A DNA stretch of 41,941 nt, from positions 1 through 41,941 of the forward strand of contig JAGVOB010000163.1 in NCBI GenBank assembly GCA_020052955.1, given 5' to 3'. Within the stretch, counting starts at the first letter, position 1. Each line of letters begins with the position of its first letter. The notes under the pieces were generated by a model, which worked only from the letters and a program-made list of their open reading frames with translations, ran no database searches and was not told the origin of the DNA. This stretch comes from Candidatus Omnitrophota bacterium. Its GTDB lineage: Bacteria > Omnitrophota > Gorgyraeia > VGKN01. This document shows positions 20,691-41,558 of the stretch, piece by piece. The translations under genes were made by a program, and so were the position numbers.

Positions 20691-21821
20691 TTAAGGTTGT
20701 TTAAAGAATTTCTTTATGCTCGCGATTACCCGCTCGACAACATTATCTGTCATATCGCTATATAAAGGCAGGGTAAGTATCTCCTGCCAGACTTTTTCCG
20801 TAACCGGCAAAGAAACCGCATAACGTTTAAAAAAAGGCTGAAGGTGGTTAGGTATATAGTGCACCCCAGAATCGATCCCTTCTTTCTTCAAAAACTCCAT
20901 TAAGCCGTCCCTGCCTTTTTTGACTTTTACGATATAATTAAAGAAGGCTGTATTTTTATAATCGCGCTTTAAGACTTCGATCCCTTTAATCCTTTTAAAT
21001 TCCTTATCGTATATTTTAACTATCTTCTTCTTTTTCTCCAGAAACTCAGCCATTTTTTTAAACTGGGTTAATCCTATAGCCGCATTTATATTGCTCATAT
21101 GGTATCTGAAACCCAAAGTAGTGACATTATAAAACCAATCCCTCTTGTGTTTATAGCGGCTCCAGGTATCTTTATCAATGCCTAGAATCCTTTTTTTATA
21201 AATCAGCTGGGCAAGTTCATCATCGGGCGTAGTGATTGCCCCGCCCTCTCCGCAAGTGATATTTTTAATGGGGTCAAAACTAAAACAGGTCAAATCTCCA
21301 AAAGACCCAATTTTCTTTCCTTTGTAACTTGAGCCAAAGGCATGAGCAGCATCTTCTACGACTTTCAGATTATTCTTCCTGGCTATATCTAAAATAGCGT
21401 CCATATCGCAGGGCAGACCGCAGTAGTGCACCGGCATAATGGCCTTTGTCCTGAGGCTGATCTTTCTTTTTATATCCTTAACATCCGCGTTTAAGGTATC
21501 GGCGGATACCTCACAGAATACCGGCCTGGCCCCGCAGAGCATAATTGCCTGAATTGAAGCGGCAAAGGTTAAAGAAGGGACAATAACCTCATCGCCGCGT
21601 TTTACCCCTATCGCATCCAGAGCCAGATGAAGCGCGGTAGTCCCGGTATTTACCGCGATAGCATTCTTTGCCCCGGTAAAACCTTTAATTACGTTCTCAA
21701 ATTCAAAGACCCATTTTCCCAAACCCAGCCATCCGGTTTTAAAGACTTCATTGATTTCCGATAGCTCATCCTGGCCTATCGACGGCCTGGATACCGGTAT
21801 TAATTTCTCATAGTTTGACAT
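20691..21821 (-). CDS. DegT/DnrJ/EryC1/StrS sugar aminotransferase
   Basis: Motifs GTTALHLAL, PVHY.G, EDAAHA and SFDPIKNITCGEGG (PLP Lys). Start moved to ATG 21821, which follows a GGTGA RBS-like sequence and avoids overlap with the upstream gene. Confidence 0.92.
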   Translation of the reverse strand: MSNYEKLIPVSRPSIGQDELSEINEVFKTGWLGLGKWVFEFENVIKGFTGAKNAIAVNTGTTALHLALDAIGVKRGDEVIVPSLTFAASIQAIMLCGARPVFCEVSADTLNADVKDIKRKISLRTKAIMPVHYCGLPCDMDAILDIARKNNLKVVEDAAHAFGSSYKGKKIGSFGDLTCFSFDPIKNITCGEGGAITTPDDELAQLIYKKRILGIDKDTWSRYKHKRDWFYNVTTLGFRYHMSNINAAIGLTQFKKMAEFLEKKKKIVKIYDKEFKRIKGIEVLKRDYKNTAFFNYIVKVKKGRDGLMEFLKKEGIDSGVHYIPNHLQPFFKRYAVSLPVTEKVWQEILTLPLYSDMTDNVVERVIASIKKFFKQP

Positions 21822-21825
21822 ATTT

Positions 21826-22616
21826 TCACCATTTTTTAGAATGCAAAATTGCAACGTATTGATAAGGATGAACTGACATTTCTTTGTGTATTATAAATCC
21901 CGCTTTTCTATACAACCTTCTTAATTCTCCTCTGGTCCGTCCCCACCCATGGAATTTACCACGATATTCTTTATTAACAGGCAATTTACCAAAAATCCTT
22001 CTGACTAGAGTTGATTCCTTAGTAGGCAATATACAAAACATTGTAATCAATTTCTTTATACTTATGTATCCACCATGAAAATCTATAATCTGTCTAACTC
22101 CCAGCTTCTTCAACTTACGAAAAGTGTCTATAAATAATACATCGTCCATTACATAACTAGCGCCAAAAAAAATTACCATATCGATACCCCCCCCGCAACA
22201 TCTAATAATCCTACTATATTGTCATTAAAGAAGTCAAAAACAACCGGGGTAATGCTCGGAAATAGAAATTTAGCTTTTTTAATCATATAAGCATCAAAAT
22301 CTGCCGCTATTATTCTTGTCTTTGGAGGAACGGCGCAAGATAGTAAATACTCAAGAACGCAATGCCCTGCCCCTAAAGATAAAATACTGTTCAGTTTATT
22401 ATCGTTTATATAACGAATTAAGAAAGCGAGAGAATTTAGTTTTTCCGGATTCCTGGAAAGATACCAGTATAGAAGCAACTCTTTATTCCTGAATATATCG
22501 CTAAATTCGTTTTCGATAACATAGGCGTGTTCCTCGGCGGTAAACTGCCTGCCATTATTATCAACGTCTTTAAGTAAGTCTAATTTGTGGCTTTTAGTAT
22601 AGAGTTTTATTTTCAT
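21826..22616 (-). pseudogene. Class I methyltransferase-like gene frameshifted at a G8 tract (possibly phase-variable)
   Basis: ORF 22173..22616 has ILSLGAG and AADFD. ORF 21826..22179 supplies the C-terminal half. G9 or G6 at 22187-22194 fuses them. Confidence 0.75.
22187..22194 (-). repeat. Poly-G8 homopolymer at the frameshift junction
   Basis: The plus strand reads tcgata-CCCCCCCC-gcaac, in an otherwise AT-rich gene. Confidence 0.85.
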
Positions 22617-26169: not shown

Positions 26170-27057
26170 TTAATTTTTGCCAATAGTAATATCATCTTTA
26201 TATAAATCACTTCGCGCATGCACTGTTATTTTAAGTCTGTTTAACTCCTCTTCCGCCCATCCGCCGCGGTATAAAATAAGAAGCCGCATAATAAAAATGT
26301 AGGCCTGCCAGAATAGAAAAGAAAGATAATATACCCATAAAATAGAAACCGAAAAAATAATTTCTATCACCAATAATAAACAAATTATGTCAATTGTACG
26401 CGCGTTATGCTCGAAGATAGCGTCGATTTTATTTTTTAAAAGTGTAAGCTTTGATTTACGGAGATCATTACCGATTACGTCCGCTGACTCCTGCTTATTG
26501 CCTGCGTAGGATGCGTTATATTCCTGCAGTTCATTCTTAGATAAGTAATGGTAAATAAACCGCTGTCTGGCTATGGAGTAGATATCCACCGCGAAGAAAA
26601 AAGGCGAGAGCGGACAAAGAATATAGAATAAATGGTGCACTGTGCGCCCTAAGTAAATCCCCATGCCAACCCAGAGTGCGGCCCATCCCAGATAAGCCCC
26701 ATAAGAGTCTAAAATATCTCCGGTGATTGACGTCTGTTTTAATTCCCGGGCTAGCGGCCCATCCGCCCAGTCCAGAAAAGGGCGCAGATAGAGTAACAGC
26801 ACTGCGGTTAAGACTGCCTTTTGAGAAGGAATAGCCAGAAAAACACCGGACAAAAGACCCATAAGAAGATACATAAATGTTACTGCGTTTGGCCTTATTT
26901 TTAGCTTTAGAAATAGCTGGATAAGCACAGCGCAGACGTTTACATAGACTACGGTTTTAATTTTTCGGTATGAGTATGGCTTCCAGAGGGCAATATAACT
27001 GTAATATTTATAGATATAGTCGTATTGATCCTGTTTTAATTCTCGTATGCTTTTCAT
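26170..27057 (-). CDS. CDP-alcohol phosphotransferase family membrane protein
   Basis: PNAVT, the signature DWADGPLAR-x8-G-x3-D, and hydrophobic helices. Confidence 0.85.
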   Translation of the reverse strand: MKSIRELKQDQYDYIYKYYSYIALWKPYSYRKIKTVVYVNVCAVLIQLFLKLKIRPNAVTFMYLLMGLLSGVFLAIPSQKAVLTAVLLLYLRPFLDWADGPLARELKQTSITGDILDSYGAYLGWAALWVGMGIYLGRTVHHLFYILCPLSPFFFAVDIYSIARQRFIYHYLSKNELQEYNASYAGNKQESADVIGNDLRKSKLTLLKNKIDAIFEHNARTIDIICLLLVIEIIFSVSILWVYYLSFLFWQAYIFIMRLLILYRGGWAEEELNRLKITVHARSDLYKDDITIGKN

Positions 27058-27063
27058 TTTTCG

Positions 27064-28314
27064 TTACCCTACCAGCAAAAGGCCTATACGGTAGAATTTA
27101 TTGGCCACGGGAAATTTCAGTTCTATGCCTAATTTTGCCACAGTCTTTACCACATCAACACCTACAGCTTCCAGCGGTATCCGCGCAAGATTGGGGAACC
27201 GGCACTTAGCGGCGCATTCATTGCATAATTTACAAGAACCTCCGATAAAAGACTGCGCGAAATGATAACTATGAGTAAACGCGAATTTCTCCAAATCCAA
27301 AAGAATGCGGTGTAATTTAACCGTAGATTCCTGTTTTATCTTTTTCCAATCTTCTCCTATTGCAGATTGTAATGCCACGATTAACCCTTTCTTGTAGCTT
27401 AAAAACATTTTTTGATAGTCAAGTTTCGGTATGTGCGGCGGACAGGTTAATTTTTTATTGTGATTAACGCAGTTATAGCAAAAGAGTTTCACCTTGGGAT
27501 CAAAAACGATATCCTTAGGATTAATAGGTAATACCTGTGTGGCCCCCAGGCTAAGAGCATGCTCCTTTAGTTTATCAAGCGCGCTAAAGATGTTGTTCAT
27601 TCTCTTAAACTCTTCAATACTATCAACCTCCATCCAGTTGAATCCATAAGTCGACACTGCGCGAAAAATATACTTAGGCAAAAGCTCATCAATGACATCT
27701 TCGTAAATAATCTTTCTCTTACCCATCTTCACCAGTTCACCCATTCTCTTTATAAAATCATTATTGCCTGCGCTTATCTTACCGATACCGATTGAACGGC
27801 CAAAAATCCCCTTGGCCGATAAAGGAACGTTTCTTCCTATGCGCACAATGCGGTTATGCGCAACTTTGACTTTATTCTCGCGCGGACTGACGTTATAATC
27901 AAAATCGACCAAAAGAAGGTTTTCCTTTGAACTCTTTGAATGGATAAGCTTCTCCAGTAATTCTTTTTCGCAGATAATATCACCGTCTATCAGGAGAAAA
28001 GGCTTAAGCAGGTATTTACGGCACAACCACAAAGAATATATTACGTTTGTAGTTAAAAAATCTTTATTCTCTATGCAAATTATCTCCCTAAACCATACTC
28101 TTTTTTTAATCTCCTTTAACTCCTTAAAGACCAGCTCTTTTTTATGCCCAACAACAATTATGATCTTTTCAATTTTTTTTAAGGATACCAGTTTTTCTAC
28201 CATATTTTCCAAGATAGTCTGATTATCTGCCAACCGGAAAAGGCACTGGTGCATCTGATTAGTATAAGGTAAAAGCTTCTTTTCCTTTCCCGCTACAAGT
28301 ATTATGGCATTCAT
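27064..28314 (-). CDS. LicC-like nucleotidyltransferase (degenerate motif) fused to a Cys-rich DUF2284-like metal-binding domain
   Basis: N-terminal MNAIILVAG, N...SL, DGD and WMEVDS. C-terminal CYNC...TCPP and GGSCKLCNEC...CRFP..AR..LEA.G.DV. Confidence 0.75.
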   Translation of the reverse strand: MNAIILVAGKEKKLLPYTNQMHQCLFRLADNQTILENMVEKLVSLKKIEKIIIVVGHKKELVFKELKEIKKRVWFREIICIENKDFLTTNVIYSLWLCRKYLLKPFLLIDGDIICEKELLEKLIHSKSSKENLLLVDFDYNVSPRENKVKVAHNRIVRIGRNVPLSAKGIFGRSIGIGKISAGNNDFIKRMGELVKMGKRKIIYEDVIDELLPKYIFRAVSTYGFNWMEVDSIEEFKRMNNIFSALDKLKEHALSLGATQVLPINPKDIVFDPKVKLFCYNCVNHNKKLTCPPHIPKLDYQKMFLSYKKGLIVALQSAIGEDWKKIKQESTVKLHRILLDLEKFAFTHSYHFAQSFIGGSCKLCNECAAKCRFPNLARIPLEAVGVDVVKTVAKLGIELKFPVANKFYRIGLLLVG

Positions 28315-28316
28315 AG

Positions 28317-29015
28317 CTATTTTTTTGTAATCTTCTTTAGGCTGACCAGGTCTTCGGGGGTATCAATCTCATGCCAGAAGAATGAATTAATGAGTATAGG
28401 CTTAACCCCGAACCCTTTGCCGGCCATTTCGCTTACCACATCTTCATACCAATCATTCCATCGTCCTTGCTCCAGCCATTTTTCTAACATCCTGCCGAAC
28501 AATTTAAGGTAGTTATAACTTATTTTTGTGATCCCTGAATATACCCCAAAAGTCAACTTATCAGGAATATCCATAGCCATTTTTATTATCCTGCCTCTAT
28601 TAAGCCTTACCCGATATCCGCCTTTCTCCCTCTGCTTTACCAATACCGAAAGATTAGCCTTGTCTTTAATTATCTTCTTTAATAACGCGGATTCCAGAAT
28701 TATATCGCTGTTCATAAAAATCAAATCGCCATTCCACTTGCTCATAGACAACCATACCGAGATAATACTGTTGGAATGGGCGTAAAAGGGGTTGAAAATA
28801 ACCTCAACCCCTTTAAATCTTCGGCAAAATAATTTCACCTTCTTGGCCTGAAACCCGCAAACTATCAGGATATCTTTTATGCCGCAGGAATTTAAAAGCC
28901 CTATCTGCCTTTCCAAGAGAGCCTTACCGCCCACCTTTACCATGCACTTTGGCAAGTTTTGTGTATATGGCTTCAAGCGTCTGCCCATACCCGCGGCAAG
29001 TATTATCGCCTTCAT
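28317..29015 (-). CDS. Phosphocholine cytidylyltransferase (LicC/PntC)-like nucleotidyltransferase
   Basis: Motifs MKAIILAAGMGRRL...PKC, N..Y...NS..S, NSD and WHEIDTPED. Confidence 0.88.
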   Translation of the reverse strand: MKAIILAAGMGRRLKPYTQNLPKCMVKVGGKALLERQIGLLNSCGIKDILIVCGFQAKKVKLFCRRFKGVEVIFNPFYAHSNSIISVWLSMSKWNGDLIFMNSDIILESALLKKIIKDKANLSVLVKQREKGGYRVRLNRGRIIKMAMDIPDKLTFGVYSGITKISYNYLKLFGRMLEKWLEQGRWNDWYEDVVSEMAGKGFGVKPILINSFFWHEIDTPEDLVSLKKITKK

Positions 29016-30073
29016 CGGGAAAAATATCCTTTCAATGCGCGTAATACGATCTCCATTTTCTCCTTAGGCCCGGTGGTAATCCGCAGATAATCCCGCAGGA
29101 ACGAATCCTCCGAAGGCAGGTAAATCAATACGCCTTTTGATTTTAAATAAGCATATACGTCTTTTCTCTTACCGTATACCTTTGCTAATACAAAATTAGC
29201 ATGCCCTTTAATAATTTCTAAACCCATCCTCTTTAAACCTGCCGCGAGATACTTCTTGCCTTCAGATTCAACTTTAACATAATTCTGGATATGCTTTGGA
29301 TGGTCAAGGATATATTCCGCGACTTTTAAAGCAAAGGTATGCGCCTCATACATCGGCCTAACTTTAAAGAAAGCCTCGATGGTATCCGGATGGCTTACCG
29401 CATATCCCAGACGTATGGATGCCGCACCTAAGGCCTTGGAAAATGTTCTCAGCACTATGAGGTTATCAAAACGTTGTGTCAATTTGAGGACAGTATGAGG
29501 ATAAAAATGAAAATAAGCTTCATCAATTAACACCGCTATACCCAACCGATTAGCCTTACGGATAATCTCCCTTAAAAAATCGAGCTCTAATACAGTGCCG
29601 GTCGGGCTATTAGGATTAGCCAGAGCGATAAGTTTAGTTCTTTTTGATACCGATACCGTCAATTTCTTCTTATCAACGCTGAAATCATTTTTAAAACCAA
29701 CTCCTATTTTTCTTGCTCCAAAAATCTTAATATATATATCATACATTGCATAGGTGGGATCCAGAACCACAACCGAATCCCCGGGTTCAACAAAAACCTC
29801 AAAGGCGCTTTTAATACCGCCATCGGAACCATTGGTAAGCAATATCCGTTCCTCGGGAACCCCCAGGTATCCGGAAAGTTTCTTGTAAAGGCGGCAAGGC
29901 TCAGGATACATTGAAAACTCCTCGGGCCTGATAGAGCTATATATGCAGGACAACGCTTTTTTATCCCAATCCAGCATACCTTCATTCTTATCCGCCCGAA
30001 CATAACCTATCCGCGATTCATTAACTCTGGGGAAACGATTTAATTTCCTTATTCTTTCTTTAATTTTTATCAT
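29012..30073 (-). CDS. HisC/CobD-like PLP enzyme (class I/II aminotransferase or phospho-amino-acid decarboxylase)
   Basis: Motifs DKNE, YP, TNGSD, NPNSPTG, DEAY, RTFSK...RLGY, ANF and RITTG. Confidence 0.87.
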   Translation of the reverse strand: MIKIKERIRKLNRFPRVNESRIGYVRADKNEGMLDWDKKALSCIYSSIRPEEFSMYPEPCRLYKKLSGYLGVPEERILLTNGSDGGIKSAFEVFVEPGDSVVVLDPTYAMYDIYIKIFGARKIGVGFKNDFSVDKKKLTVSVSKRTKLIALANPNSPTGTVLELDFLREIIRKANRLGIAVLIDEAYFHFYPHTVLKLTQRFDNLIVLRTFSKALGAASIRLGYAVSHPDTIEAFFKVRPMYEAHTFALKVAEYILDHPKHIQNYVKVESEGKKYLAAGLKRMGLEIIKGHANFVLAKVYGKRKDVYAYLKSKGVLIYLPSEDSFLRDYLRITTGPKEKMEIVLRALKGYFSR

Positions 30074-33519: not shown

Positions 33520-34395
33520 CTATTTCTTAATAGTCCATACCGCAGTAATCATATTGCCCCAAAAGGGCACGGAATCTTTAATAATGTCTCTGCGCCCTTT
33601 CGCGATTAATAAAATATCTCTTTTCATTTTTTCATAATCCCTGGGCAGATTAGCATAGGGTGTCTCTTCATAAAAATATTTTTTTTCCACTAACTCAAAC
33701 CCAAAAGGATGCAATATCTTATCTAATAAATCTACACTAAAAAAATGTAAATGCTCAATGGGAGTGAACAACCTCCATTTTTCCCGATATACTTCTGCGC
33801 AGAAAGATTCAATATTCGGCGTAGCTGTTATAAAAAGCATACCTTTATTTCTTAAAATAGAGGCACATTTTTTAAGATAACTTCCTGGTTCAATACAATG
33901 CTCTATAACGCCCCTTAAAACAACTAAATCAAATTTCTCCTTGCCTAAATCTAAATCTGAGAAATCTCCCTCAATTACTTCTATGCCAAATTTTTTCTTT
34001 GCATAATGCGCTGCGTTCGAATCTATTTCTATTCCCTTACGCTTCCACTTCCGCCGGTCAAACTCGTTTAAGAAAAACCCTCCTGAACAGCCTAAATCCA
34101 ATACGCTTCCCCGGCTTATAAATTTATTTATAAACTCATATTCCAACTTATACATTATCTTCCTATCATGGCACAGGACCTTATTCTCAAAGCGATTCCT
34201 GAGGTATGTGCCGTAAAAGATTTTAAGCCCATCTTCATTTATATGGGGATTTACCGAAACCATCCCGCATCCACGGCACCTAAGGGCTCCCAGATAATAC
34301 AGCCTGCCCCATAAATAAAACTTATTACTTCCGCAGATAATACAATTCCTTTTCTTATCGATATACTTCTTTAATCTCTTATAGACTTCTTCCAT
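33520..34395 (-). CDS. Class I SAM methyltransferase with N-terminal CxxC/CxxC zinc site
   Basis: CIIC...CRGC, VLDLGCSGG, GVIEH, TPN and EHL..FS. Confidence 0.88.
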   Translation of the reverse strand: MEEVYKRLKKYIDKKRNCIICGSNKFYLWGRLYYLGALRCRGCGMVSVNPHINEDGLKIFYGTYLRNRFENKVLCHDRKIMYKLEYEFINKFISRGSVLDLGCSGGFFLNEFDRRKWKRKGIEIDSNAAHYAKKKFGIEVIEGDFSDLDLGKEKFDLVVLRGVIEHCIEPGSYLKKCASILRNKGMLFITATPNIESFCAEVYREKWRLFTPIEHLHFFSVDLLDKILHPFGFELVEKKYFYEETPYANLPRDYEKMKRDILLIAKGRRDIIKDSVPFWGNMITAVWTIKK

Positions 34396-34399
34396 TAAT

Positions 34400-35452
34400 T
34401 TAAACTGTTAGGAAAATACTTTTAATCTTTTTGATCTTCTGTATATCTTCTTCGCTGATATTTCTTATTATATCCCCCATCCCATCCGCTATTCCTAAAC
34501 ATCTTGTCGGTTGAATAATATTATCTACTATAACATCCCCGTGCCTACCCATCATTCCACCCGCAACAATGTTTATCCCTTCCACTGTCCTTCTGCCAAT
34601 GACCTCACTAAGCAACTTTTCGGTTGCTAGAATATTCGCAACAACACCCTCAAAACCCGCCCTTATGTCCAATCTTAATACGGTATGGCCATGCCTCTCT
34701 GCAAAGGCAATTGCATGTTTAAAAATACTGCCTTTACCTACATCGACAATTAATGCATTTTCATTTAACAGTTTTACCATCTCGGTATTAACCGCCGGCT
34801 CACCCGCTGTAGCCGCAATAAGAATGTCAGCGTTCTTCACAGCTTCCCGGTTTGATTTAAATGCCTTCACAATAGCTAGAGTCTGCGCAGGTTTAATTAA
34901 ATTTAAGGCTTTTGCAATAGCAAACGCTTTTTTGTAATCTCTCCTCGCAATATTAACCCAAGCACCTCTTTCAACCAAACGAAGAGCAATTTTGGAGCCT
35001 ATATTCCCTACGCCTATAATGGCTACTTTTTTCCCGCCTATCTTATATACAAATTGCGCCAGCAGCATATCAATAGCATCTACTGTAAGATCATTAGCTT
35101 TGAATGTAAAAACCTTGGATTTCTTAACTGTTTCTTTAACCAGGCGTTCTATATTACCGCCTATCCAATCTCCATATTCACTCTGGATTATCTTCTTCTC
35201 GGCATCAACTAGAATATATTCCACCTTGCCGTCTACATAACCGGCAATCTCTTTGGCTTGTTGCGGATTATATACAATCGCATTACCGGCAATGGCAAGC
35301 CTAGTTACCCTTAGGGGCGGGAAATATAAGCCTTCTCTATCGAGCTTTCTAGTATTGGCGATAGTAAACATTGTATGTTTGCCGCCAACAGCATGATGCT
35401 TTATATCGCGTAAGATTAAATCTATTTGCTTCTTAAGATCTTTTTTAGACAT
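34400..35452 (-). CDS. NAD(P)-binding domain protein (shikimate dehydrogenase/glutamyl-tRNA reductase-like Rossmann domain), function unknown
   Basis: KKVAIIGVGNIG, ADILIAAT and IVDVG. The N-terminal part was not recognised. Confidence 0.65.
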   Translation of the reverse strand: MSKKDLKKQIDLILRDIKHHAVGGKHTMFTIANTRKLDREGLYFPPLRVTRLAIAGNAIVYNPQQAKEIAGYVDGKVEYILVDAEKKIIQSEYGDWIGGNIERLVKETVKKSKVFTFKANDLTVDAIDMLLAQFVYKIGGKKVAIIGVGNIGSKIALRLVERGAWVNIARRDYKKAFAIAKALNLIKPAQTLAIVKAFKSNREAVKNADILIAATAGEPAVNTEMVKLLNENALIVDVGKGSIFKHAIAFAERHGHTVLRLDIRAGFEGVVANILATEKLLSEVIGRRTVEGINIVAGGMMGRHGDVIVDNIIQPTRCLGIADGMGDIIRNISEEDIQKIKKIKSIFLTV

Positions 35453-37820
35453 CGTTCCAGGTAATAGGATGGTCTTTAGGCACAGCCCGTTTTACTTTCC
35501 TTCCAATGACTAAATCAATATACTTAGGCATAATCCCATGGCCGGGGCCTTTTATGTCTATCTTATCCGAATCTAGGAGCTCGCCGATAGCCAAATCCTT
35601 AGCGGCAAAAATACTCTTTCTGAATTTATTAATCGTTTCAAATTCAGCCGGCCGAATAACTTTTACTCCATCTCCTAGTATCTGTAAAATTTTCGAAGAA
35701 TTACTTACCAATTCAGCCATTTCGTCAGGGTCAGAAGACAGTATATGGTCCGGTCCTTCCAAGTACTTATTAAGCGTAAAATGCCTCTCGATAACATTAG
35801 CGCCCAAGCCAATAGCCAAATTAGCAGTCAGTAGACCGATACTATGGTCAGAATAACCAACAGGCAACTTAAATGCCGTTTTTAATGTACTGATAACTTT
35901 CAGGTTTGCATCTTCCATATGCATAGGATAATCAGATACACAATGCAAAAGTATAACATTTTTATTCCCGGTTTTGGTGATAACCTCTAAGGCCTCTTCT
36001 ACCATAGCTAAATTAGACATGCCTGTAGATAAAATAATCGGTTTCTGCTTAGAGGCTGTATAACTTAAGAGCCTATGGTTAACTAAATCAAAGGAAGAAA
36101 TTTTATAGCATCCGACCCCCACCATCTCAAGAATATCCACATCTTCTTCGCTGAAGGGGGTTGAAAAAAAAGGAATACCATTTCTTTTTGAATATCGATA
36201 TAGTAACTTAAATTCATTTTCCGTAAATTCGAGCCTGGAAAACATATCATAATAGTTCTCTTCCATGCTTAATGTCTTTTCAAAATAATTTGCGCTTTTT
36301 ACCTTAGAAGATACTCTTTTTTCGGCTTTAAAAGTTTGAAACTTAACCGCATCACAGCCTGCTTCTTTGGCCTTCCGTATCAATTCTTTGGCTATCCTGA
36401 TGTTTCCATTATGGTTTAAGCCTGCCTCTGCGATGATAAGCGGTTTATAGCCATCCCCCACTAACTTACCCAAAATATTAACTACGCTGTTAAAGCCAAA
36501 TTTATACCCTTGCCTGATATTTATATTCTTAGAATAGTAATCACTTGAAATCAATTCCGCAAGGTCAACGCCTTTGGCAAACAATATCTGGATATCCGAG
36601 TAATGAAACTCAGCTAAAGAACCACAATTATATAAGTTTATCAATTTGGATAAAGCGCTGTTTATGTTTGATAATTCAACTTCGTAGCCATAGAAATACT
36701 TCGGATATACTTCATCAATACGCTGTATCATACCAGAGACAAAATCATCGCGGTTTACAAAACCTAATTTCACGAATTGAAGTAAGGTTTCTGCGATTAA
36801 ATGGCTGTTTTTATTTTTGTATAACGGCTCATCCTTATCGCATGCGATTTCAAAACAAAGGGTTGTGGTATCTTTAGAGAGGCCTTCGGAGGAAAACCTC
36901 TTCTGTTCGGTAACCCTATGGAAAATTATGTTAGGGTCATCAAAATATAACCAGTCAAACTTATCTTGAAAAACCAACGGTTTTTTAAATTTCAGAAAAA
37001 CAAAAATGATACTCCGGAACTTCAAATTATTTTTTATTCCCAAAAACCGCGTAAGATGATTTAGGGGAACTGTAGAGATTAAAATACTATCTTTTAAATC
37101 AATGGTCCTTTTTTTATTTATTACTAAAGATAAAACACTGTCTTCATTAGTATTTATCGAAGTGACCTCGGAATTAAGCATTATGTTCCCGGACATCTTC
37201 ACTATCTTTCTTTTCAGGACATCTACAATCTGCCCGCTGCCCCTTCGGCATACTGCACACCATTGGTTACAATAAAAGGCTTCGTATTTCTTTCTTAATT
37301 CTATTCTCTTGGGCGCCCAATTCGTTATCATATCTGCTGTTTTCATGCCCCATATTTTTTTGGGATAATCCTCATAGAATAATTTTTGCAGGGTTGGGCC
37401 AACCAGGGATTCGACATATTTCTTATAATTTGTGGCTATTGCCCTCTTAAAAGGATCAACAGCCTCTAACTCCTTGCGGATTTGATTTTGCAGGTCTGCG
37501 GGAAACTCCTTTATAGTGGAAACGGCTAAAGGATAATCATAAAGTTTGCCGTTTTTGAAATTCTTGCACCAAAACTGTTTCTCCAAAAATATATCCGGAG
37601 ATAATTTCTTCCAATACTTAACAATATTTTTGTTAAAAGAATGGAATAATTTCGGACCAAGATCCACATAATCCCCTTCAAAATCCAAAGTCCTTAAAAG
37701 ACCCCCGGGATTGCCAAGTTTTTCAAGAATAGTCACATTGATGCCTTTTTGCAATAATTCATATGCGGCAACTAAACCGGTGATGCCTGCACCAATTATG
37801 TAAACGTTTTTATCTTTCAT
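35445..37820 (-). CDS. Fusion of an FAD-dependent UDP-galactopyranose-mutase-like domain with a NeuB-family nonulosonate synthase (SAF C-terminus)
   Basis: N-terminal IIGAGITG, GP..FH, Y..K.WG, YP.Y and G.LAEF.Y.D. C-terminal AEAGLNHNG, KFQTF, STGM, LHCVS.YP, GYSDH, ERHFT, GPDH and K.PG.GI.P. Confidence 0.88.
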   Translation of the reverse strand: MKDKNVYIIGAGITGLVAAYELLQKGINVTILEKLGNPGGLLRTLDFEGDYVDLGPKLFHSFNKNIVKYWKKLSPDIFLEKQFWCKNFKNGKLYDYPLAVSTIKEFPADLQNQIRKELEAVDPFKRAIATNYKKYVESLVGPTLQKLFYEDYPKKIWGMKTADMITNWAPKRIELRKKYEAFYCNQWCAVCRRGSGQIVDVLKRKIVKMSGNIMLNSEVTSINTNEDSVLSLVINKKRTIDLKDSILISTVPLNHLTRFLGIKNNLKFRSIIFVFLKFKKPLVFQDKFDWLYFDDPNIIFHRVTEQKRFSSEGLSKDTTTLCFEIACDKDEPLYKNKNSHLIAETLLQFVKLGFVNRDDFVSGMIQRIDEVYPKYFYGYEVELSNINSALSKLINLYNCGSLAEFHYSDIQILFAKGVDLAELISSDYYSKNINIRQGYKFGFNSVVNILGKLVGDGYKPLIIAEAGLNHNGNIRIAKELIRKAKEAGCDAVKFQTFKAEKRVSSKVKSANYFEKTLSMEENYYDMFSRLEFTENEFKLLYRYSKRNGIPFFSTPFSEEDVDILEMVGVGCYKISSFDLVNHRLLSYTASKQKPIILSTGMSNLAMVEEALEVITKTGNKNVILLHCVSDYPMHMEDANLKVISTLKTAFKLPVGYSDHSIGLLTANLAIGLGANVIERHFTLNKYLEGPDHILSSDPDEMAELVSNSSKILQILGDGVKVIRPAEFETINKFRKSIFAAKDLAIGELLDSDKIDIKGPGHGIMPKYIDLVIGRKVKRAVPKDHPITWNDV

Positions 37821-37821
37821 A

Positions 37822-38787
37822 TCATTTGCCTTTCTCGGCAGCCTCTAAAGCAATCCTTAAGACTTCTATGCCTTCTTTTAACGGTATTAAGGTTTGCTTC
37901 CTCTTTTTTATACAATATAGGAAATGTTTGAGTTCGCTTATAAACATACCATTCCTTTCAAACCCTCGGGGGTTCCTCCTGATATATTTTTTACCATTTC
38001 GGCTTTCACTTATCAATATTCCCTCATGGCAATTCCAATAAATTCTTCTTTTCTCGGCTACAATTAACAAATCATGCACTCGGGGCTTTTGAAAATAATC
38101 AACGTGTACATGTCCGATAACCTTATTATTAAATCCCAGTGTGATTTCCGCTATATTTTCCACATCGGTTTTTAAGCCGGGAAGCCTGTCATGAATACAC
38201 GTAACTCTAGAAACCCCGCCAAAAAGCCAATACATATAATCAATCGGATGGATAAGTGTTAGAATAACGCCGCCGCCTAATCTTTTCAAAGCGCTATAGC
38301 CCTTGCGATAATCTTCCCATGGATGCCAATCTGGCAAATACTCCGCCCATCTGGCACTTGCATAAATAACTCTCCCTAATGCCTTATTCTTAACCCAATA
38401 TTTTATAGTTTGCAGGTGCGGATGAAACCGGAACTGACAACCGATAAAAGTAATTAGTCCTTTTTTCTTAACCAAAGAATGTAATTCTTGCAAATGCACC
38501 AGATTATGAGAGACGGGCTTTTCGATAAAAAGGTTGCAGCCGGCTTTTGCACATTTCAATGCAACTTCAACATGCAAAGAAGTGGGATTGGCAATAATTG
38601 CGACATCCGGTTTCTGTGCAAGGGCATCATTAATATCATGATAGGCCGGTAATGAAGAAAATTTATTTATATCCTTCATTACGCTTTTTTGGGTCCTGTA
38701 AAGAATTATATCTTTATATCCTAAACTTATAAGATTAGAGAGATGCCTTGAACCAACTGATCCCAAACCTATAACTAATATTTTCAT
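37822..38787 (-). CDS. Gfo/Idh/MocA family oxidoreductase
   Basis: IGLGSVG.RH, NPT..H, FIEKP and YLPDWHPWEDYR..YS....GGG. Confidence 0.9.
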   Translation of the reverse strand: MKILVIGLGSVGSRHLSNLISLGYKDIILYRTQKSVMKDINKFSSLPAYHDINDALAQKPDVAIIANPTSLHVEVALKCAKAGCNLFIEKPVSHNLVHLQELHSLVKKKGLITFIGCQFRFHPHLQTIKYWVKNKALGRVIYASARWAEYLPDWHPWEDYRKGYSALKRLGGGVILTLIHPIDYMYWLFGGVSRVTCIHDRLPGLKTDVENIAEITLGFNNKVIGHVHVDYFQKPRVHDLLIVAEKRRIYWNCHEGILISESRNGKKYIRRNPRGFERNGMFISELKHFLYCIKKRKQTLIPLKEGIEVLRIALEAAEKGK

Positions 38788-38793
38788 TTTATA

Positions 38794-39516
38794 TTATCTG
38801 TTTTTTAGCCTATCTGAAGCACTTAAAAGATCTTTCTGCTCATCGATATCAATCATATCTGCTGCGCTTATTATCAAAGGTAATACATTCTTGCCGGATA
38901 TCGAATTTTCTTCCAAAAGAGTCTTTCTTCTAGTCATTTCCAGGTCGCCCGTCTGAAAATAAACATCCGGGAGCTTTTGTCTGGGAATGTTATAAGGTTC
39001 AAAGATGCTATCATTTAATACAGGAACTATAAAATCCCCCTTTATTTTAAACATCCGGTAAGGATGCTGTCTGCACAACGCAACCGTTCTGACTGAATTA
39101 GCATCTGGATATTTTTTAAGAAGACGATGCCCCTTTTCTATTAGTCCCTCCGGCCTCAAAGGCGAGGTTGGCCGTAATAATACAAAAATATCAAACATTT
39201 TGTGTTCATATTTTTCCAGCCAATCTGCGGCGTGCTTAAAAACAGGATAATCAGGCGTACCATCTTGAGCGTATTCTGCCGGTCTTATAAAAGGGACATC
39301 CGCACCGTATTTCTTGGCGATATCAGCTATTTCTAAATCATCTGTTGATACAATAGTCCTTTTTACTAAAGGGCATTTTAAGGAATACTCAATCGCGTAT
39401 GACAATAGGGGTTTCCCATTTAAAAGGCTTATGTTCTTTTTCTTTATACCCTTACTCCCACCTCTGGCTGGGATAATAGTAACAATGCGCACGTCACGCT
39501 TCTTAGCTACCAACAT
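38794..39516 (-). CDS. neuA: CMP-nonulosonic acid synthetase (acylneuraminate cytidylyltransferase)
   Basis: IIPARGGSKGI..KN, VSTDD, RP...A.D, PTSPLR, RQ.LP and DID...D. Confidence 0.9.
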   Translation of the reverse strand: MLVAKKRDVRIVTIIPARGGSKGIKKKNISLLNGKPLLSYAIEYSLKCPLVKRTIVSTDDLEIADIAKKYGADVPFIRPAEYAQDGTPDYPVFKHAADWLEKYEHKMFDIFVLLRPTSPLRPEGLIEKGHRLLKKYPDANSVRTVALCRQHPYRMFKIKGDFIVPVLNDSIFEPYNIPRQKLPDVYFQTGDLEMTRRKTLLEENSISGKNVLPLIISAADMIDIDEQKDLLSASDRLKNR

Positions 39517-40286
39517 GTAAAGCCCCCATCGACTATCAAATTATGCCCAGTAACGTATTCTGAGGCATCGGACGATAGATATACTAATGCTCCACTCAAC
39601 TCTTTTGTAAGTCCCATCCTTCTAAGAGGCGTCTTATAAGAATAATTTCTTATAAACTTTTCTAACTGTTTATTAAAAATTCCTCCGGGACTAATACAAT
39701 TCACTCTTATATTATACTTACTTAGATAACACGCCAAATATTTAGTAAGCTGTATAACCGCAGCTTTGCTCATAGCATATACCTCCGAACAATTTCTTCC
39801 GGAATCAGCATATATTCTTTGATCAGGCGCGACTAATCCATAAATCGAGCCTATATTTACTATGTTCCCTTTTCTTCGCTTAATCATGCTTTTAGAAACA
39901 ACCTGAGAACAAAGAAAAGCTCCTTTTGCATTAATAGCCATTATTTTATCGAACTCCTCAGGTGTCCTTTTTTCAAACGGCGTAAATACACCCATGCCGG
40001 CATTATTCACGAGAGTGTCTATCTTCTTGAAATGTCTCAAAACTTTATCCACGCATTTTTCAATAGAGCCTTTATCTGTAACATCCATCTCTAACGATAT
40101 AGCTTTCCCGCCAGATTTGCATATTTTACTTTCCGTTTTTCTACACGCATCAATAACCTTATCGGTGAGTACCAGGTAAGCGCCAAATTCTGTTAATGTT
40201 TGGGCTATTGCCCTACATAGCTGACCATTGGCACCAGTTATTAATATAACTTTTTTATCTAGACTAAATAATTTACTTGCAGACAT
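39507..40286 (-). CDS. Short-chain dehydrogenase/reductase (PtmA/ElaC-like)
   Basis: ITGANG, NNAG, SIYG..APD..IY, YAMSK, RVNCISPGG and TGHNLIVDGG. Confidence 0.9.
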   Translation of the reverse strand: MSASKLFSLDKKVILITGANGQLCRAIAQTLTEFGAYLVLTDKVIDACRKTESKICKSGGKAISLEMDVTDKGSIEKCVDKVLRHFKKIDTLVNNAGMGVFTPFEKRTPEEFDKIMAINAKGAFLCSQVVSKSMIKRRKGNIVNIGSIYGLVAPDQRIYADSGRNCSEVYAMSKAAVIQLTKYLACYLSKYNIRVNCISPGGIFNKQLEKFIRNYSYKTPLRRMGLTKELSGALVYLSSDASEYVTGHNLIVDGGFTCW

Positions 40287-40401: not shown

Positions 40402-41304
40402 TTAAGATTGTAAAGAGCGTTTTTCATACTCAAAAAGGCTTAGGTAACCGAGCGTTGAATGCGCCCTTTTGCGGTTGTAGTACATCTCAACGTACTCAAA
40501 GATCCTTCTTTTTGCCTCTTCCCGTGTTTTGAACTTTGTCCGGTGAATCAGCTCCACCTTAAGCGTATGAAAAAAACTCTCAGCTACGGCGTTATCCCAG
40601 CAGTCGCCTTTTTTGCTCATGCTGCCTACGAATTCATTTTGGGCCAATAACGCTTTAAAATCATTAGCGGCATATTGAACACCCCTGTCAGAATGATAAA
40701 CAAGCCCTTTAGGGGGAGAACGCCGTAGGATTGCCTGTTTTAACGCCTGAAGCGTCAAAGTCTCGGCAATTGTTTTATCCATAGCAAGCCCAACGATTCC
40801 TCGTGAAAACAAATCGAGTATCGCCGCCAGATAGAGCCAGCCCTCATACGTCCAAATATAGGTTATATCCGATACCCAGACGGCGTTCGGTTTTTCTACC
40901 GAGAAAATCCGGTTCAAGACATTAGGCCACACAGGATAATCATGCTTCGAGTTTGTTGTCACCCTGAACTTGCGCCTCTGTATGGCAACCAGGTTACTAA
41001 GGCGCATAAGGCGGGCGATACGATTCAAAGAACAAGGAATCTGCTCTTTATTACGCAGTTCGTTCCATACCCGCGGGCTGCCGTAATTACGGTTATTATC
41101 CCAGAATACCCGCCTTATTTCAATGAGCAGATTGTCGTTATTGATTCTGTTTAGGCTTTTAGGCCTTGTCTTAAACGCGTAATAACCGCTCCTGGATACT
41201 TCCACCGCGCGGCACATCTTCTCAAGCGGAAAGACCAAACGGTTTAAGTCTATAAATTCGAACCGTTCTCGGTCGGTTTTGAAAATATGCCGACTGCTTT
41301 TTTT
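40402..41304 (-). CDS. IS3 transposase OrfB (DDE integrase core), expected to be expressed as OrfAB by -1 frameshift
   Basis: VSRSGYY, YGSPR, WVSDITY, HSDRGVQY and DNAVAESFF. The frame is open upstream of 41238 to the A7G site. Confidence 0.93.
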   Translation of the reverse strand, partial: KKSSRHIFKTDRERFEFIDLNRLVFPLEKMCRAVEVSRSGYYAFKTRPKSLNRINNDNLLIEIRRVFWDNNRNYGSPRVWNELRNKEQIPCSLNRIARLMRLSNLVAIQRRKFRVTTNSKHDYPVWPNVLNRIFSVEKPNAVWVSDITYIWTYEGWLYLAAILDLFSRGIVGLAMDKTIAETLTLQALKQAILRRSPPKGLVYHSDRGVQYAANDFKALLAQNEFVGSMSKKGDCWDNAVAESFFHTLKVELIHRTKFKTREEAKRRIFEYVEMYYNRKRAHSTLGYLSLFEYEKRSLQS

Positions 41305-41558
41305 AGTATTTCTATCTCCATTTCGGCGTTGCGCAGCTTACGCCGCAAGGCGACCATTTCCGTTAAATGCCCCTTGCCTACAAACGCTTTATCGCCATCC
41401 TGGGCATACTTCCTTTTCCAATTATAAAGCACATTGGCGTGGATTCCCAAAGAGCGGGCTACTTCCGAGGCTTTTTGGCCTTCTTCGGTAATCATTTTGA
41501 CCGCTTGAACCTTAAACGCCTTGTCAAAACGTTTCATTTGGACCTTTTCCCCATCCAT
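41250..41558 (-). CDS. IS3 transposase OrfA (HTH)
   Basis: FK..AV......VARSLGI...LY.W and EILKKA. RBS AGGAGGT upstream of the ATG. Confidence 0.93.
   Translation of the reverse strand: MDGEKVQMKRFDKAFKVQAVKMITEEGQKASEVARSLGIHANVLYNWKRKYAQDGDKAFVGKGHLTEMVALRRKLRNAEMEIEILKKAVGIFSKPTENGSNL
41297..41304 (-). promoter_or_regulatory. -1 frameshift/slippage motif AAAAAAAG
   Basis: CTA AAA AAA GCA in orfA. The -1 frame reads KKSSRHIFKTDRERFEFI into orfB. Confidence 0.85.

Follow-up and report, generated by a model that had tools for sequence, protein, structure and literature searches.

What does a flavin domain of the UDP-galactopyranose mutase type (UGM, or Glf) do when it is joined in one protein to a nonulosonic acid synthase (NeuB)? 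Flagella, capsules, S-layers and LPS carry nonulosonic acids as decoration, and phage and host recognition depends in part on these sugars. To our knowledge, every bacterial route described so far begins with an NDP-sugar, which a NeuC/LegG- or PseG-type hydrolase frees for the synthase. UGM interconverts pyranose and furanose forms of a sugar with a reduced flavin, and we know of no UGM-family enzyme that acts as a net NDP-sugar hydrolase. A gene combining the two kinds of enzyme lies in a 41,941-nt stretch of a Candidatus Omnitrophota genome, here called the window. A literature search found no paper on a UGM-like::NeuB fusion. This gene probably marks an undescribed route to a sialic-acid-like surface sugar.

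The open frame claimed for this protein in the earlier note, which was made from the sequence alone, is present at exactly the coordinates given in Table 1. It is a single frame with an ATG start and no internal stops, and it lies on the minus strand, a detail absent from that claim. At the FAD end, Pfam matched NAD_binding_8 (residues 8-73), Amino_oxidase (13-284, 4.5e-19) and GLF/UGM (148-335, 39.7 bits against a cut-off of 26.3). The motifs that had been quoted as Glf/UGM-like were all found in the translation (IIGAGITG 8-15, GPKLFH 55-60, YPKKIWG 152-158, VYP 371-373 and GSLAEFHYSD 400-409) and aligned with their counterparts in Klebsiella pneumoniae UGM (KpUGM). The NeuB half was likewise as complete as described, with NeuB (PF03102) matched over its whole model (1-241) at residues 480-720 (5.6e-87, 291.6 bits) and SAF (PF08666) at 735-791 (43.5 bits). 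The AlphaFold2 model of the fusion reached a mean pLDDT of 92.5, with a dip to 58 in the linker block 431-440, and the mutual placement of the two domains in it is uncertain (pTM 0.64).

Table 1. Features of the fusion gene and its operon, in window coordinates
Feature	Coordinates	Strand	Basis
PtmA-like short-chain dehydrogenase (SDR), 259 aa, first gene of the tight operon	39507..40286	-	Pfam adh_short_C2 1.9e-54
CMP-ulosonate cytidylyltransferase-like protein, 240 aa	38794..39516	-	Pfam CTP_transf_3 (PF02348)
Gfo/Idh/MocA oxidoreductase, 321 aa, PtmF-like by position	37822..38787	-	Pfam GFO_IDH_MocA N- and C-domains
UGM-like::NeuB fusion protein (P0001), 791 aa	35445..37820	-	ORF, Pfam, homologues, AlphaFold2
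Residues 1-430, UDP-galactopyranose-mutase superfamily FAD domain	36531..37820	-	Profile, Foldseek, invariant residues
Residues 431-458, inter-domain linker	36447..36530	-	pLDDT dip, L126 TAA
Residues 459-791 and stop, NeuB TIM-barrel and SAF (antifreeze-like) domain	35445..36446	-	Pfam, Foldseek
Two-domain NAD(P)-binding protein (P0267), 350 aa, no described family	34400..35452	-	Linkage, Rossmann matches
SAM-dependent methyltransferase, 291 aa, frequent, not obligate	33520..34395	-	Pfam Methyltransf_23/11

The fusion is real and ancient. It might have been a singleton, as the earlier note allowed, but 116 of the 120 homologues listed (773-816 aa) share its architecture of NeuB with FAD-type Pfam families. 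Among the best 150 representatives at 50% identity, 26 are at least 780 aa long and match over both domains. The proposed check for recurrence of the domain architecture showed the fusion to be widespread: it is one ORF in 71 of 90 loci, runs off a contig end in 16 and is interrupted in 3. All 74 sampled NeuB domains from fusions form one clade (support 0.906), whose only non-fusion rows are the split NeuB of relative L126 and P0141, which look like one protein. Carriers comprise many uncultured and a few cultured bacteria, including SAR11, CPR, Omnitrophota (6 of 401 genomes of the phylum), Campylobacterota and marine gammaproteobacteria. Arcobacter iocasae KX21116 is among the cultured ones, and in it the question can be put to a direct test. 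A stop between the domains, also envisaged earlier, was not seen. Among sequencing runs, the highest share of the window's own words in any one was 0.14. The junction was checked on contigs of relatives about 93-95% identical, from two other studies. At about 36447-36530 these contigs cross the linker without a gap, and no indel was listed (X2 record 12, 36063-37446; X6 record 25, 35445-37237). The domain junction is not an assembly slip.

The N-terminal domain was compared with UGM at the level of profile, fold and active site. With a profile of 10 fused flavin domains, the best 20 PDB matches were all UGMs (4dsg 1.5e-26, 3gf4 2.7e-24), and the next family aligned with the N-terminal FAD part only. 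Foldseek against the PDB matched Aspergillus fumigatus (Af) UGM 5hhf at 7.3e-26 and Trypanosoma cruzi (Tc) UGM at TM 0.74-0.77 (target TM 0.77 for TcUGM 4dsh); the UGM three-domain fold is present. Protoporphyrinogen oxidases are nearly equal by TM (0.76-0.77), so the UGM fold alone is not exclusive. The Glf equivalog model TIGR00031 scored 52.2 bits against a cut-off of 303.75. Judged by its sequence, the domain is a relative within the UGM superfamily and not a Glf equivalog.

Most of the UGM active site is retained. A table in PMC3322874 gives twenty KpUGM active-site residues, and the same source describes the R174A and R280A variants as inactive, both arginines holding the beta-phosphate. 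Their equivalents in the fusion, R172 and R302, are conserved in 119 of 119 sequences, as are W157 (Kp W160), Y407 (Y349), D409 (D351), E324 (E301) and a second His, H60 (Kp H63). In the FAD-binding GxGxxG motif, G10 and G12 are invariant (119/119) and G15 nearly so (116/119). Y152 (Kp Y155) is kept in 117, F148 (F151) in 115 and Y372 (Y314) in 102 of the 119; position 149 (Kp F152) is F or Y in 118, and position 183 (Kp Y185) is Y, F, W or H. In total, more than 20 positions of the domain are invariant over 119 sequences, with overall identity down to 27%. Because these equivalents of KpUGM active-site residues are kept, NDP-sugar binding by the flavin domain is likely. Two positions depart from UGM. 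Position 401 (Kp R343/Af R447) is T in 47, S in 26, G in 26, A in 16, C in 2, V in 1 and L in 1, and Arg in none of the 119, and the Arg is present in 23 of 23 stand-alone relatives of the same phylum. The His-loop position (Kp H60/Af H63) is K57 in the window; across the family it is His in 112, Lys in 6 (the window's clade) and Arg in 1. With the Arg lost and Lys at the His-loop, the domain may have a changed form of the canonical UGM chemistry, or none of it.

The NeuB half showed a similar combination. Foldseek matched it to Neisseria meningitidis NeuB (NmNeuB) and PseI at E about 1e-31. NmNeuB E25, K53, Q55, H215, E234, H236 and D247 correspond to E465, K493, Q495, H659, E678, H680 and D691, each present in 119 of 119 sequences. 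The domain looks competent, since its metal and PEP ligands are invariant. In the account of NmNeuB in PMC11339185, R314, an Arg of the SAF domain, binds the N-acetyl carbonyl of ManNAc. This Arg aligns with G758 and occurs in 0 of 119 fused proteins (G 90, A 14, S 12, P 2, T 1); the position is G, A or S in 116, with Lys just before it in 103. An equivalent Arg is found in 83 of 95 non-fused NeuBs. The fusion falls below the equivalog cut-offs of both NeuB/NnaB (367.9 against 399.65) and PseI (293.9 against 340.25), so its substrate is unreadable from homology. Each half has thus lost one otherwise conserved active-site Arg; both are remodelled, and on these alignments the two halves are co-adapted.

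The hydrolase expected of a conventional route was not found in the locus. The statement in the earlier note that the window holds no NeuC was upheld: an Epimerase_2 or PseG-type family was found in 0 of 37 scanned ORFs (the fusion itself, 23 ORFs at E<=1e-5 and 13 at E<=1e-10), with the proviso that Pfam scores PseG-type genes weakly and may miss them at the thresholds used (1e-10 to 1e-12). The proposed check of whether fusion loci in general lack neuC gave a similar result: phmmer with two Epimerase_2 seeds matched, over 90 loci, only a gene in Arcobacter locus L005 that NCBIfam scores as WecB. In the genome, the sole strong Epimerase_2 (PF02350) match also scores as WecB (325.8 bits, whereas the NeuC model, with a cut-off of 235.9, gives 64.5), and the weak matches reach 30.7 bits (contig C128) and 22.5 bits. 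Another contig of the same genome (C157) carries a PseF::PseG fusion beside a stand-alone NeuB, the PseG-like hydrolase domain scoring 144.2 bits against a cut-off of 153.55. This hydrolase could act in trans for the fusion, and several neighbouring ORFs without a family could be a new hydrolase. With a second, conventional-looking route on C157, the cell need not make all of its ulosonic acids with the fusion.

Glycosyltransferases are numerous in the window, a large glycan locus; the genes next to the fusion are listed in Table 1. The CMP-transferase domain occurs in 16 of the 18 most complete loci; its PseF score (153.5 bits, cut-off 205.7) supports family-level membership only. The PtmA-like SDR (NCBIfam PRK09186-type oxidoreductase, 191 bits, below the cut-off of 255) has homologues in 36 of 90 loci and 10 of the 18. 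The TGA stop of the Gfo/Idh/MocA gene lies 1 nt ahead of the fusion ATG, and this family is present in just 2 of the 18. Methyltransferase homologues were found in 14 of 90 loci, including L005 at 37% identity. Other partners among the 90 are a HemL-like class-III aminotransferase (18) and an aldo-keto reductase (14). No window ORF matched Polysacc_synt_2 (PseB/LegB-type 4,6-dehydratase); the dehydratase in the window is Gmd (490 bits, cut-off 415), and the DegT protein at 20691-21854 scored 337 bits with the PseC model (cut-off 423.5).

The most constant neighbour is the 350-aa NAD(P)-binding protein encoded directly downstream, whose ATG overlaps the fusion stop by 8 nt. Where a locus has at least 2 ORFs on each side, this protein is encoded no more than 2 genes from the fusion in 33 of 34 cases, and in one 1141-aa triple fusion (P0150) the flavin domain, NeuB and this partner form a single protein. 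The partner is obligate and the linkage is strong. A family search returned generic Rossmann matches only, and its model has a pLDDT of 95.4. VIA-align gave Z 14-16.4, with rmsd 8.4 over 215 aligned residues for 2rir_A and Z 15.7, rmsd 6.2 over 231 residues for 6tlk_A. D83, K87, N120 and D121 are invariant and suggest what we take to be a Lys/Asp dyad of the shikimate-dehydrogenase type, a resemblance only. In G382, a divergent partner-like gene (29% identity) stands beside a stand-alone NeuB with no flavin domain, and in G292 another is fused to an HMGL-like aldolase domain. By these two cases, the partner is tied to C-C bond formation and not to the flavin domain.

We tentatively favour the reading that the protein has two enzymatic functions and is central to an undescribed CMP-ulosonic-acid route, in which the flavin domain strips NDP and passes the aldose to NeuB. 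The N-terminal domain would bind an NDP-sugar as UGM does, and N5 of the reduced flavin would displace the NDP. The flavin-sugar iminium would then be hydrolysed instead of re-closed to the furanose, and the free open-chain aldose would be handed to the fused NeuB and condensed with PEP. The flavin domain would thereby occupy the slot that NeuC/LegG or PseG has in known pathways. Tailoring of the sugar, or of its precursor, by oxidation or reduction would fall to the NAD(P) protein, whose gene is translationally coupled, and to the PtmA-like SDR; the CMP-sugar would be made by the PseF/LegF-like enzyme. Architecture, recurrence, residue conservation and gene linkage are observed; the nucleotide, sugar and product, like the chemistry of each step, are what we infer. 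A wider reading, doubtful as a whole, makes this a third, flavin-based feed for a sialic-acid-type synthase, with covalent N5 unmasking of an NDP-sugar that is channelled to a remodelled NeuB. In it, the obligate new NAD(P) dehydrogenase joins, at times as a third fused domain. The resulting CMP-ulosonic acid would be one other than Neu, Leg or Pse, possibly lacking the usual 5-acetamido group or having a longer backbone, and gene transfer would have spread the pathway over Omnitrophota, CPR bacteria, SAR11, Campylobacterota and others.

Other roles for the flavin domain were weighed. An unlikely one, which survives best, is new chemistry on the sugar or ulosonic acid without UGM-type covalent N5 catalysis, such as an oxidation that yields a keto group to be aminated or epimerised later, with the UGM scaffold for NDP or CMP binding kept. 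The Arg lost from all fused domains and kept in the stand-alone relatives, K57 in the window's clade, a fold almost as near to protoporphyrinogen oxidases and the frequent redox and amination partners would all suit such a role. However, the sequence profiles place the domain among UGMs, apart from oxidases, and the residues that hold the diphosphate and nucleotide are invariant, although a redox enzyme whose substrate is a free ulosonic acid would have little need of them. It is quite unlikely that the domain is an ordinary NDP-pyranose/furanose mutase, one that supplies the same glycan with a furanose donor and is fused to NeuB for co-expression alone. Its UGM fold and motifs, the Pfam GLF score above cut-off and the wealth of glycosyltransferases in the window agree with this, but no glycosyltransferase co-varies with the fusion, whose constant neighbours are the dehydrogenase-like protein and the CMP-transferase. 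The changed substrate site of the fused NeuB clade, the loss of R343 in fused domains only and the low Glf equivalog score also argue against it. Improbable, too, is a catalytically silent module that senses nucleotide sugars, or regulates or scaffolds NeuB and the partner; two active-site positions do differ from UGM and the partner accompanies C-C-forming enzymes even without a flavin domain, but the invariant positions include FAD-binding glycines and substrate-site residues, a pattern typical of a working active site. An assembly or gene-calling artefact joining two neighbouring genes is refuted for practical purposes: L126 does have a TAA in frame within the linker, followed two codons on by an ATG, and L009 and L182 are interrupted, but the single ORF recurs across many assemblies, including the complete genome of a cultured Arcobacter, and the gap-free contigs come from independent studies.

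If the favoured reading of NDP removal by the flavin domain is right, a conserved module puts a flavoenzyme domain, together with a dehydrogenase of no known family, in place of the hydrolase logic. This module occurs in abundant, poorly studied lineages, namely SAR11, CPR, Omnitrophota and marine gammaproteobacteria. It would add a new reaction outcome to the covalent flavin catalysis of UGM-type enzymes. It would also mean a new class of surface sugar, one that might explain ulosonic acids left unassigned in mass spectrometry, for example C10 species (SugarBase preprint).

Compared with known systems, the module is partly familiar. The flavin domain is proposed for the same pathway slot as the hydrolysing 2-epimerases NeuC/LegG and the UDP-sugar hydrolase PseG; folds and mechanisms are unrelated, and the proposed equivalence derives from absence and fusion. 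In legionaminic acid loci of C. jejuni/coli and P. shigelloides, the order is PtmA-LegF-PtmF...LegI (PMC4481668 Table 5). The window has the same succession of SDR (254-259 aa), CMP-transferase (229-240), oxidoreductase (321-326) and synthase, a likeness of family and order only. In contrast to that cassette, no counterparts of PtmE, LegH, LegB or LegG adjoin, the synthase bears a flavin domain, and nothing corresponds to the 350-aa partner. The partner itself shares a GxGNxGxK Rossmann motif and an N-terminal substrate domain with shikimate dehydrogenase, DpaA and methylene-H4MPT dehydrogenase, but differs in a flat match list with no family prominent (Foldseek TM at most 0.48) and an additional beta-rich C-terminal part (285-350). 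Relative to the NeuB family (NmNeuB 1XUU, Campylobacter jejuni PseI 8H2C, Bacillus subtilis SpsE 1VLI, LegI), the fused proteins are a separate clade without the Arg that binds the N-acetyl carbonyl, yet they have the same TIM barrel and SAF domain and the same metal and PEP ligands (E 1e-45 to 1e-52 and Foldseek TM 0.84-0.89 on target for solved members). Relative to UGM (KpUGM 3GF4/1WAM, TcUGM 4DSG, AfUGM 3UTE/5HHF), the flavin domain is only about 20% identical, is covalently joined to NeuB, lacks the R343 equivalent and, in the window's protein, has Lys at Kp H60/Af H63. UGM is nevertheless its closest sequence relative among solved structures, sharing the FAD Rossmann motif and the three-domain fold (Foldseek E 1e-24 to 7e-26).

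The fusion is real and recurrent. The earlier note had described a single 791-aa ORF in which Glf/UGM-like motifs are joined to a complete NeuB plus SAF domain. The ORF was confirmed exactly, as one open frame; all of the motifs were found in it and match those of the Klebsiella pneumoniae UDP-galactopyranose mutase (UGM) in alignment, and Pfam recovered both C-terminal domains, NeuB at full length. In NCBIfam, the models nearest to the C-terminal half were NeuB/NnaB (367.9 bits, cut-off 399.65) and PseI (293.9 bits, cut-off 340.25). The N-terminal half came nearest to unnamed PRK07208 models, at 182.7 bits and under the cut-off, and scored 52.2 against a cut-off of 303.75 for the Glf equivalog. 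AlphaFold2 modelled the protein from 119 homologues with a mean pLDDT of 92.5, the sole weak stretch of the linker region being block 431-440 (pLDDT 58). The pTM was 0.64, so each domain is placed confidently and their relative position is not.

Features of the window and of the fusion protein with their positions
Feature	Position	Strand	Remarks
Fusion ORF	35445..37820	minus	791 aa, ATG start, 0 internal stops
NAD_binding_8	residues 8-73 of fusion		Pfam
Amino_oxidase	residues 13-284 of fusion		Pfam
GLF/UGM	residues 148-335 of fusion		Pfam, 39.7 bits, cut-off 26.3
NeuB, full-length	residues 480-720 of fusion		Pfam, 291.6 bits
SAF	residues 735-791 of fusion		Pfam
SDR	39507-40286	minus	opens operon
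CTP_transf_3 cytidylyltransferase	38794-39516	minus	PseF-like, 153.5 bits
Gfo/Idh/MocA oxidoreductase	37822-38787	minus	stop 1 nt ahead of fusion ATG
Partner, 350-aa NAD(P)-binding protein	34400-35452	minus	ATG overlaps fusion TAA by 8 nt
Methyltransferase, then 640-aa protein without assigned function, then flippase			past partner in operon
IS3-type transposase pair	40402-41558	minus	HTH_Tnp_1 ORF (102 aa), then rve integrase-core ORF (278 aa); directly upstream of SDR
Gmd and Fcl	16644-18623	minus	Gmd 490 bits (over cut-off); Fcl 492.8 bits (just below cut-off 500)
PseC/ArnB-like DegT	20691-21854
Second FAD amine-oxidase-fold protein, 429 aa	5991-7280	minus	PRK07233, 375 bits, cut-off 252, unnamed function
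B12-binding radical-SAM enzyme	7297-8748	minus	adjoins 429-aa FAD protein
Four-gene run	26170-30073	minus	HisC/CobD-like class I/II aminotransferase, NTP_transf_3, NTP_transferase::DUF2284, CDP-alcohol phosphatidyltransferase

A domain-architecture search, proposed in the earlier note, found that the fusion is no singleton. The search covered 5.8 billion proteins and matched 137; among the 120 matches listed, 116 combine NeuB with FAD-type Pfam families (773-816 aa, 36-82% identity), under source names that include Omnitrophota, Elusimicrobia, Anaerolineales, Pacebacteria, and Magnetococcales. The 150 best representatives at 50% identity include 26 of at least 780 aa with one continuous match over both domains, and at least 10 shorter ones that span the linker. 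Relatives in genome contigs, none of which came from a single-protein query, were found by an alignment-based scan. The full fusion occurs in Arcobacter iocasae KX21116 (cultured, complete genome NZ_CP090177.1; fusion and partner orthologues at L005 7995-10391 and 10384-11475), a Pelagibacteraceae single-cell genome, and gammaproteobacterial and Kaiserbacteria MAGs, among others. It forms one ORF in 71 of 90 loci (80 from metagenomes, 9 from genomes, and the window itself; some share source studies and are not all independent), reaches a contig end in 16, and is interrupted in three (L009, L182, and L126). L126 (8001-10388) is a split form of the fusion: its linker has an in-frame TAA with an ATG two codons downstream, and the downstream NeuB retains the fusion-type KGPG motif. 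Of the 401 sampled genomes of the window's phylum, 6 carried the fused form as ORFs of 795-813 aa (E<=3.6e-94), and 75 others held stand-alone relatives only, at 21-33% identity. This patchy distribution is consistent with a glycan module passed on by horizontal transfer. The IS3-type pair beside the operon likewise fits a mobile glycan module. Among sequencing runs, none held more than 0.14 of the sampled window words, and no listed holder was recorded as RNA.

The NeuB domain retains its catalytic equipment and has an altered sugar site. Equivalents of Neisseria meningitidis NeuB E25, K53, Q55, H215, E234, H236, and D247 are invariant in the fusions, so PEP condensation should work. The equivalent of R314 is G758; this position is G, A, S, P, or T in 119/119 fusions, preceded by Lys in 103. 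According to PMC11339185, it is R314 to which the substrate's N-acetyl carbonyl is bound, and bacterial enzymes conserve this Arg completely. Among 95 non-fused NeuBs, 83 have an R314-type Arg; the stand-alone NeuBs found in the fusion loci and in the window's genome are among those that do. In a FastTree phylogeny of 169 NeuB domains, which sampled 74 of the 119 fusion domains, the fusion domains formed one clade (support 0.906). The only non-fusion rows within it were the split L126 NeuB and the protein P0141, whose identical Pfam scores suggest that they are the same protein. This single clade shows that the fusion had one origin and that the fused NeuB later changed its sugar-binding site. 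Scores of the fused NeuB against solved NeuB, PseI, and SpsE were alike (158-182 bits), and the Neu, Leg, and Pse types of substrate are therefore indistinguishable. A non-aminated product, as read from the missing R314, was not adopted as a conclusion because mammalian Neu5Ac-9-P synthase likewise lacks an R314-type Arg, according to the same source (PMC11339185), and DegT or class-III aminotransferases are present in some fusion loci.

The earlier note had stated that no NeuC-type hydrolysing epimerase is in the window, and this held: NeuC/LegG or PseG types occurred in 0 of 37 window ORFs. The fusion loci also appeared without neuC. A phmmer scan of 719 ORFs from the 90 loci, with two WecB-type Epimerase_2 seeds of limited NeuC sensitivity, matched one Arcobacter gene only, which NCBIfam scores as non-hydrolysing WecB. 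The window's genome (95% complete) has one strong Epimerase_2 match, a WecB (325.8 bits vs 64.5 for the NeuC model), besides two weak matches of 30.7 and 22.5 bits. Pfam thresholds of 1e-10 to 1e-12 could miss weak PseG-type matches, so the negative result for PseG outside the window holds at those thresholds. On another contig of the same genome, C157 (L120 8723-11433), a second NeuB adjoins a 550-aa PseF::PseG-like fusion whose PseG part scored 144.2 bits (cut-off 153.55). This stand-alone NeuB keeps the R314-type Arg, and its locus also has a Kdo-transferase-like gene and a heptosyltransferase. The C157 locus thus gives the organism a second, separate, conventional-looking route to an ulosonic acid.

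The fusion gene lies inside a tightly packed minus-strand operon. A CMP-transferase domain was found in 16 of the 18 most complete loci, in two forms: stand-alone with an SDR, which is the window's type, or within a 580-599-aa NeuB-like::CTP_transf_3 fusion. The latter proteins (L003 11463-13214, L117 12461-14224, L118 2828-4585, and others) combine a divergent NeuB-like part with CTP_transf_3 and stand directly after the partner in 8/18 of these loci. Their NeuB-like part scored 113-131 bits and lacks both the SAF domain and the R314-type Arg. Frequent neighbors were a HemL-like class-III aminotransferase (18/90 loci), an aldo-keto reductase (14/90), radical-SAM enzymes, and an ABC exporter.

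The partner is the constant neighbor of the fusion, being present in 18/18 most complete loci. It lies within two genes of the fusion in 33 of 34 loci that extend for two or more ORFs to either side and is adjacent in 27. Strong homologues occurred in 7/401 phylum genomes, namely six fusion carriers and the orphan G091 (2e-80). Strict co-occurrence was rejected as absolute on two exceptions. In G091, no fusion was found with an N-domain query at E<=1e-20, and the sole NeuB is ~820 kb from the partner homologue; in L201, the fusion is present with no partner among the 2 downstream ORFs covered. The G091 orphan (L203 9005-10066) is 57% identical to the L123 partner and adjoins a GT2, with no fusion within 9 kb. 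P0150 (1141 aa) carries UGM-like, NeuB, and partner-like parts in one chain, its residues 875-1124 aligning to partner residues 78-323 (28% identity, E 2e-21); as a single representative, it may be an artefact of read-through or a frameshift. For the partner, to which no family could be assigned, Pfam, NCBIfam, PDB sequence search, Foldseek (TM at most 0.48), wide VIA-align (flat Z of 13-16 across DpaA, methylene-H4MPT, shikimate, and 2-hydroxyacid dehydrogenases), and ESM Atlas (unnamed clusters) gave generic NAD(P)-Rossmann matches only. Its invariant D83, K87, N120, and D121 with GxGNxGxK are suggestive of a Lys/Asp-dyad dehydrogenase. A weaker partner-like domain adjoins a stand-alone NeuB in a PseB/DegT-type cluster of G382. 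In G292 (L205 3613-5682), a 689-aa protein joins an HMGL-like (DRE-TIM aldolase/lyase) domain (8-264) to a partner-like one (365-666) beside DegT and class-I glutamine amidotransferase genes, with no NeuB on the 9.5-kb contig. These two cases tie the partner to a 2-oxo-acid-forming step rather than to the flavin. A predicted complex of the flavin domain (1-445) with the partner (score 0.00, mark 0.32) speaks neither for nor against contact.

Among solved structures, the flavin domain is closest to UGM. A profile of ten fusion flavin domains searched against solved structures returned UGMs as all of its best 20 matches (T. cruzi 4dsg, 1.5e-26, residues 5-412; K. pneumoniae 3gf4, 2.7e-24), and Foldseek placed A. 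fumigatus and T. cruzi UGMs on top (E 7e-26 to 1e-23, target TM 0.67-0.77). Residue equivalents come from the profile alignment and from PMC3322874, which tabulates 20 active-site residues. Those of K. pneumoniae H63, W160, R174, R280, E301, Y349, and D351 are kept in 119/119 fusions, Y155 in 117, F151 in 115, and Y314 in 102; N270 is replaced by a Tyr shared with the fungal enzyme. R174A and R280A are inactive, both arginines holding the beta-phosphate, as reported in the same table's source (PMC3322874). Two positions differ. The R343/R447 equivalent is Arg in 0/119 fusions, and this Arg is retained in 23/23 stand-alone relatives of the window's phylum. In place of the His-loop histidine (Kp H60, Af H63), the window's fusion and its nearest relatives have Lys (H 112, K 6, and R 1 over the 119). 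Judged from these residues, UGM-like binding of FAD and an NDP-sugar is very probable, yet the domain is not a plain Glf.

Our working reading, the likeliest of those considered and still a tentative one, is that the flavin domain would take an NDP-sugar and displace NDP by N5 attack, UGM-style, and that the open-chain aldose would go to the fused NeuB, the ring not being re-closed. Next, the partner and the SDR would change the oxidation state of the sugar, leaving the cytidylyltransferase to activate it. We infer every chemical step. Such aldose release would explain why the two domains are fused, why the diphosphate site was kept and ring-chemistry residues were lost, why the NeuB sugar site was remodelled, and why a NeuC/PseG gene is lacking. 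Mannose-1-P guanylyltransferase/HddC-like and HddA-like genes flanking the fusion in L003 and L117, together with the window's Gmd/Fcl pair, which is for GDP-L-fucose, hint at GDP as the nucleotide.

New redox chemistry by the flavin domain is unlikely. Against it, carotene desaturase, the next family for the profile, matched over the N-terminal part alone (residues 4-141); in its favor, protoporphyrinogen oxidases came close behind the UGMs in Foldseek. Rather less probable is an ordinary mutase fused to NeuB for co-expression, which would share the conserved UGM residues and leave the absent R343/R447-type Arg to be accounted for. A silent flavin domain with a regulatory or scaffold role is improbable beside the fully kept diphosphate arginines, even with two positions changed. 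An artefactual fusion can be dismissed almost entirely, since in two other studies close relatives have contigs that span the linker gap-free.

Elsewhere in the window, the genes of the 26170-30073 run resemble a pathway for making a phospho-amino-alcohol, or a head group of that sort, for the same glycan. The table also records a PseC/ArnB-like DegT and a second FAD protein beside a B12-binding radical-SAM enzyme; on contig C135 of the same genome, a stand-alone PRK07208-like paralogue lies between two B12-radical-SAM genes.

Within the literature covered, which excludes subscription journals, no published account of a UGM-like::NeuB fusion was found. In the large-scale NulO-synthase phylogeny of 2021 (PMC8208679), the words fused, fusion, FAD, and mutase have 0 occurrences. 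For Magnetospirillum gryphiswaldense, CMP-activated ulosonic acids whose backbone is C10 are reported in the SugarBase preprint (bioRxiv 10.64898/2026.04.20.719630), in which no gene assignment for them was found. B12-radical-SAM genes of the C-methylase type, or genes for heptose-type activation, occur in several fusion loci, and a link to these C10 acids is only a lead. The fusion should interest glyco-enzymologists, with Arcobacter iocasae as a carrier for direct testing. The window's order of SDR, CMP-transferase, oxidoreductase, and synthase equals the PtmA-LegF-PtmF...LegI order of the Plesiomonas shigelloides legionaminic acid locus (PMC4481668, Table 5). By sequence, both fusion domains belong to known superfamilies, neither passes as the equivalog of a characterized enzyme, and in each one defining residue is missing.
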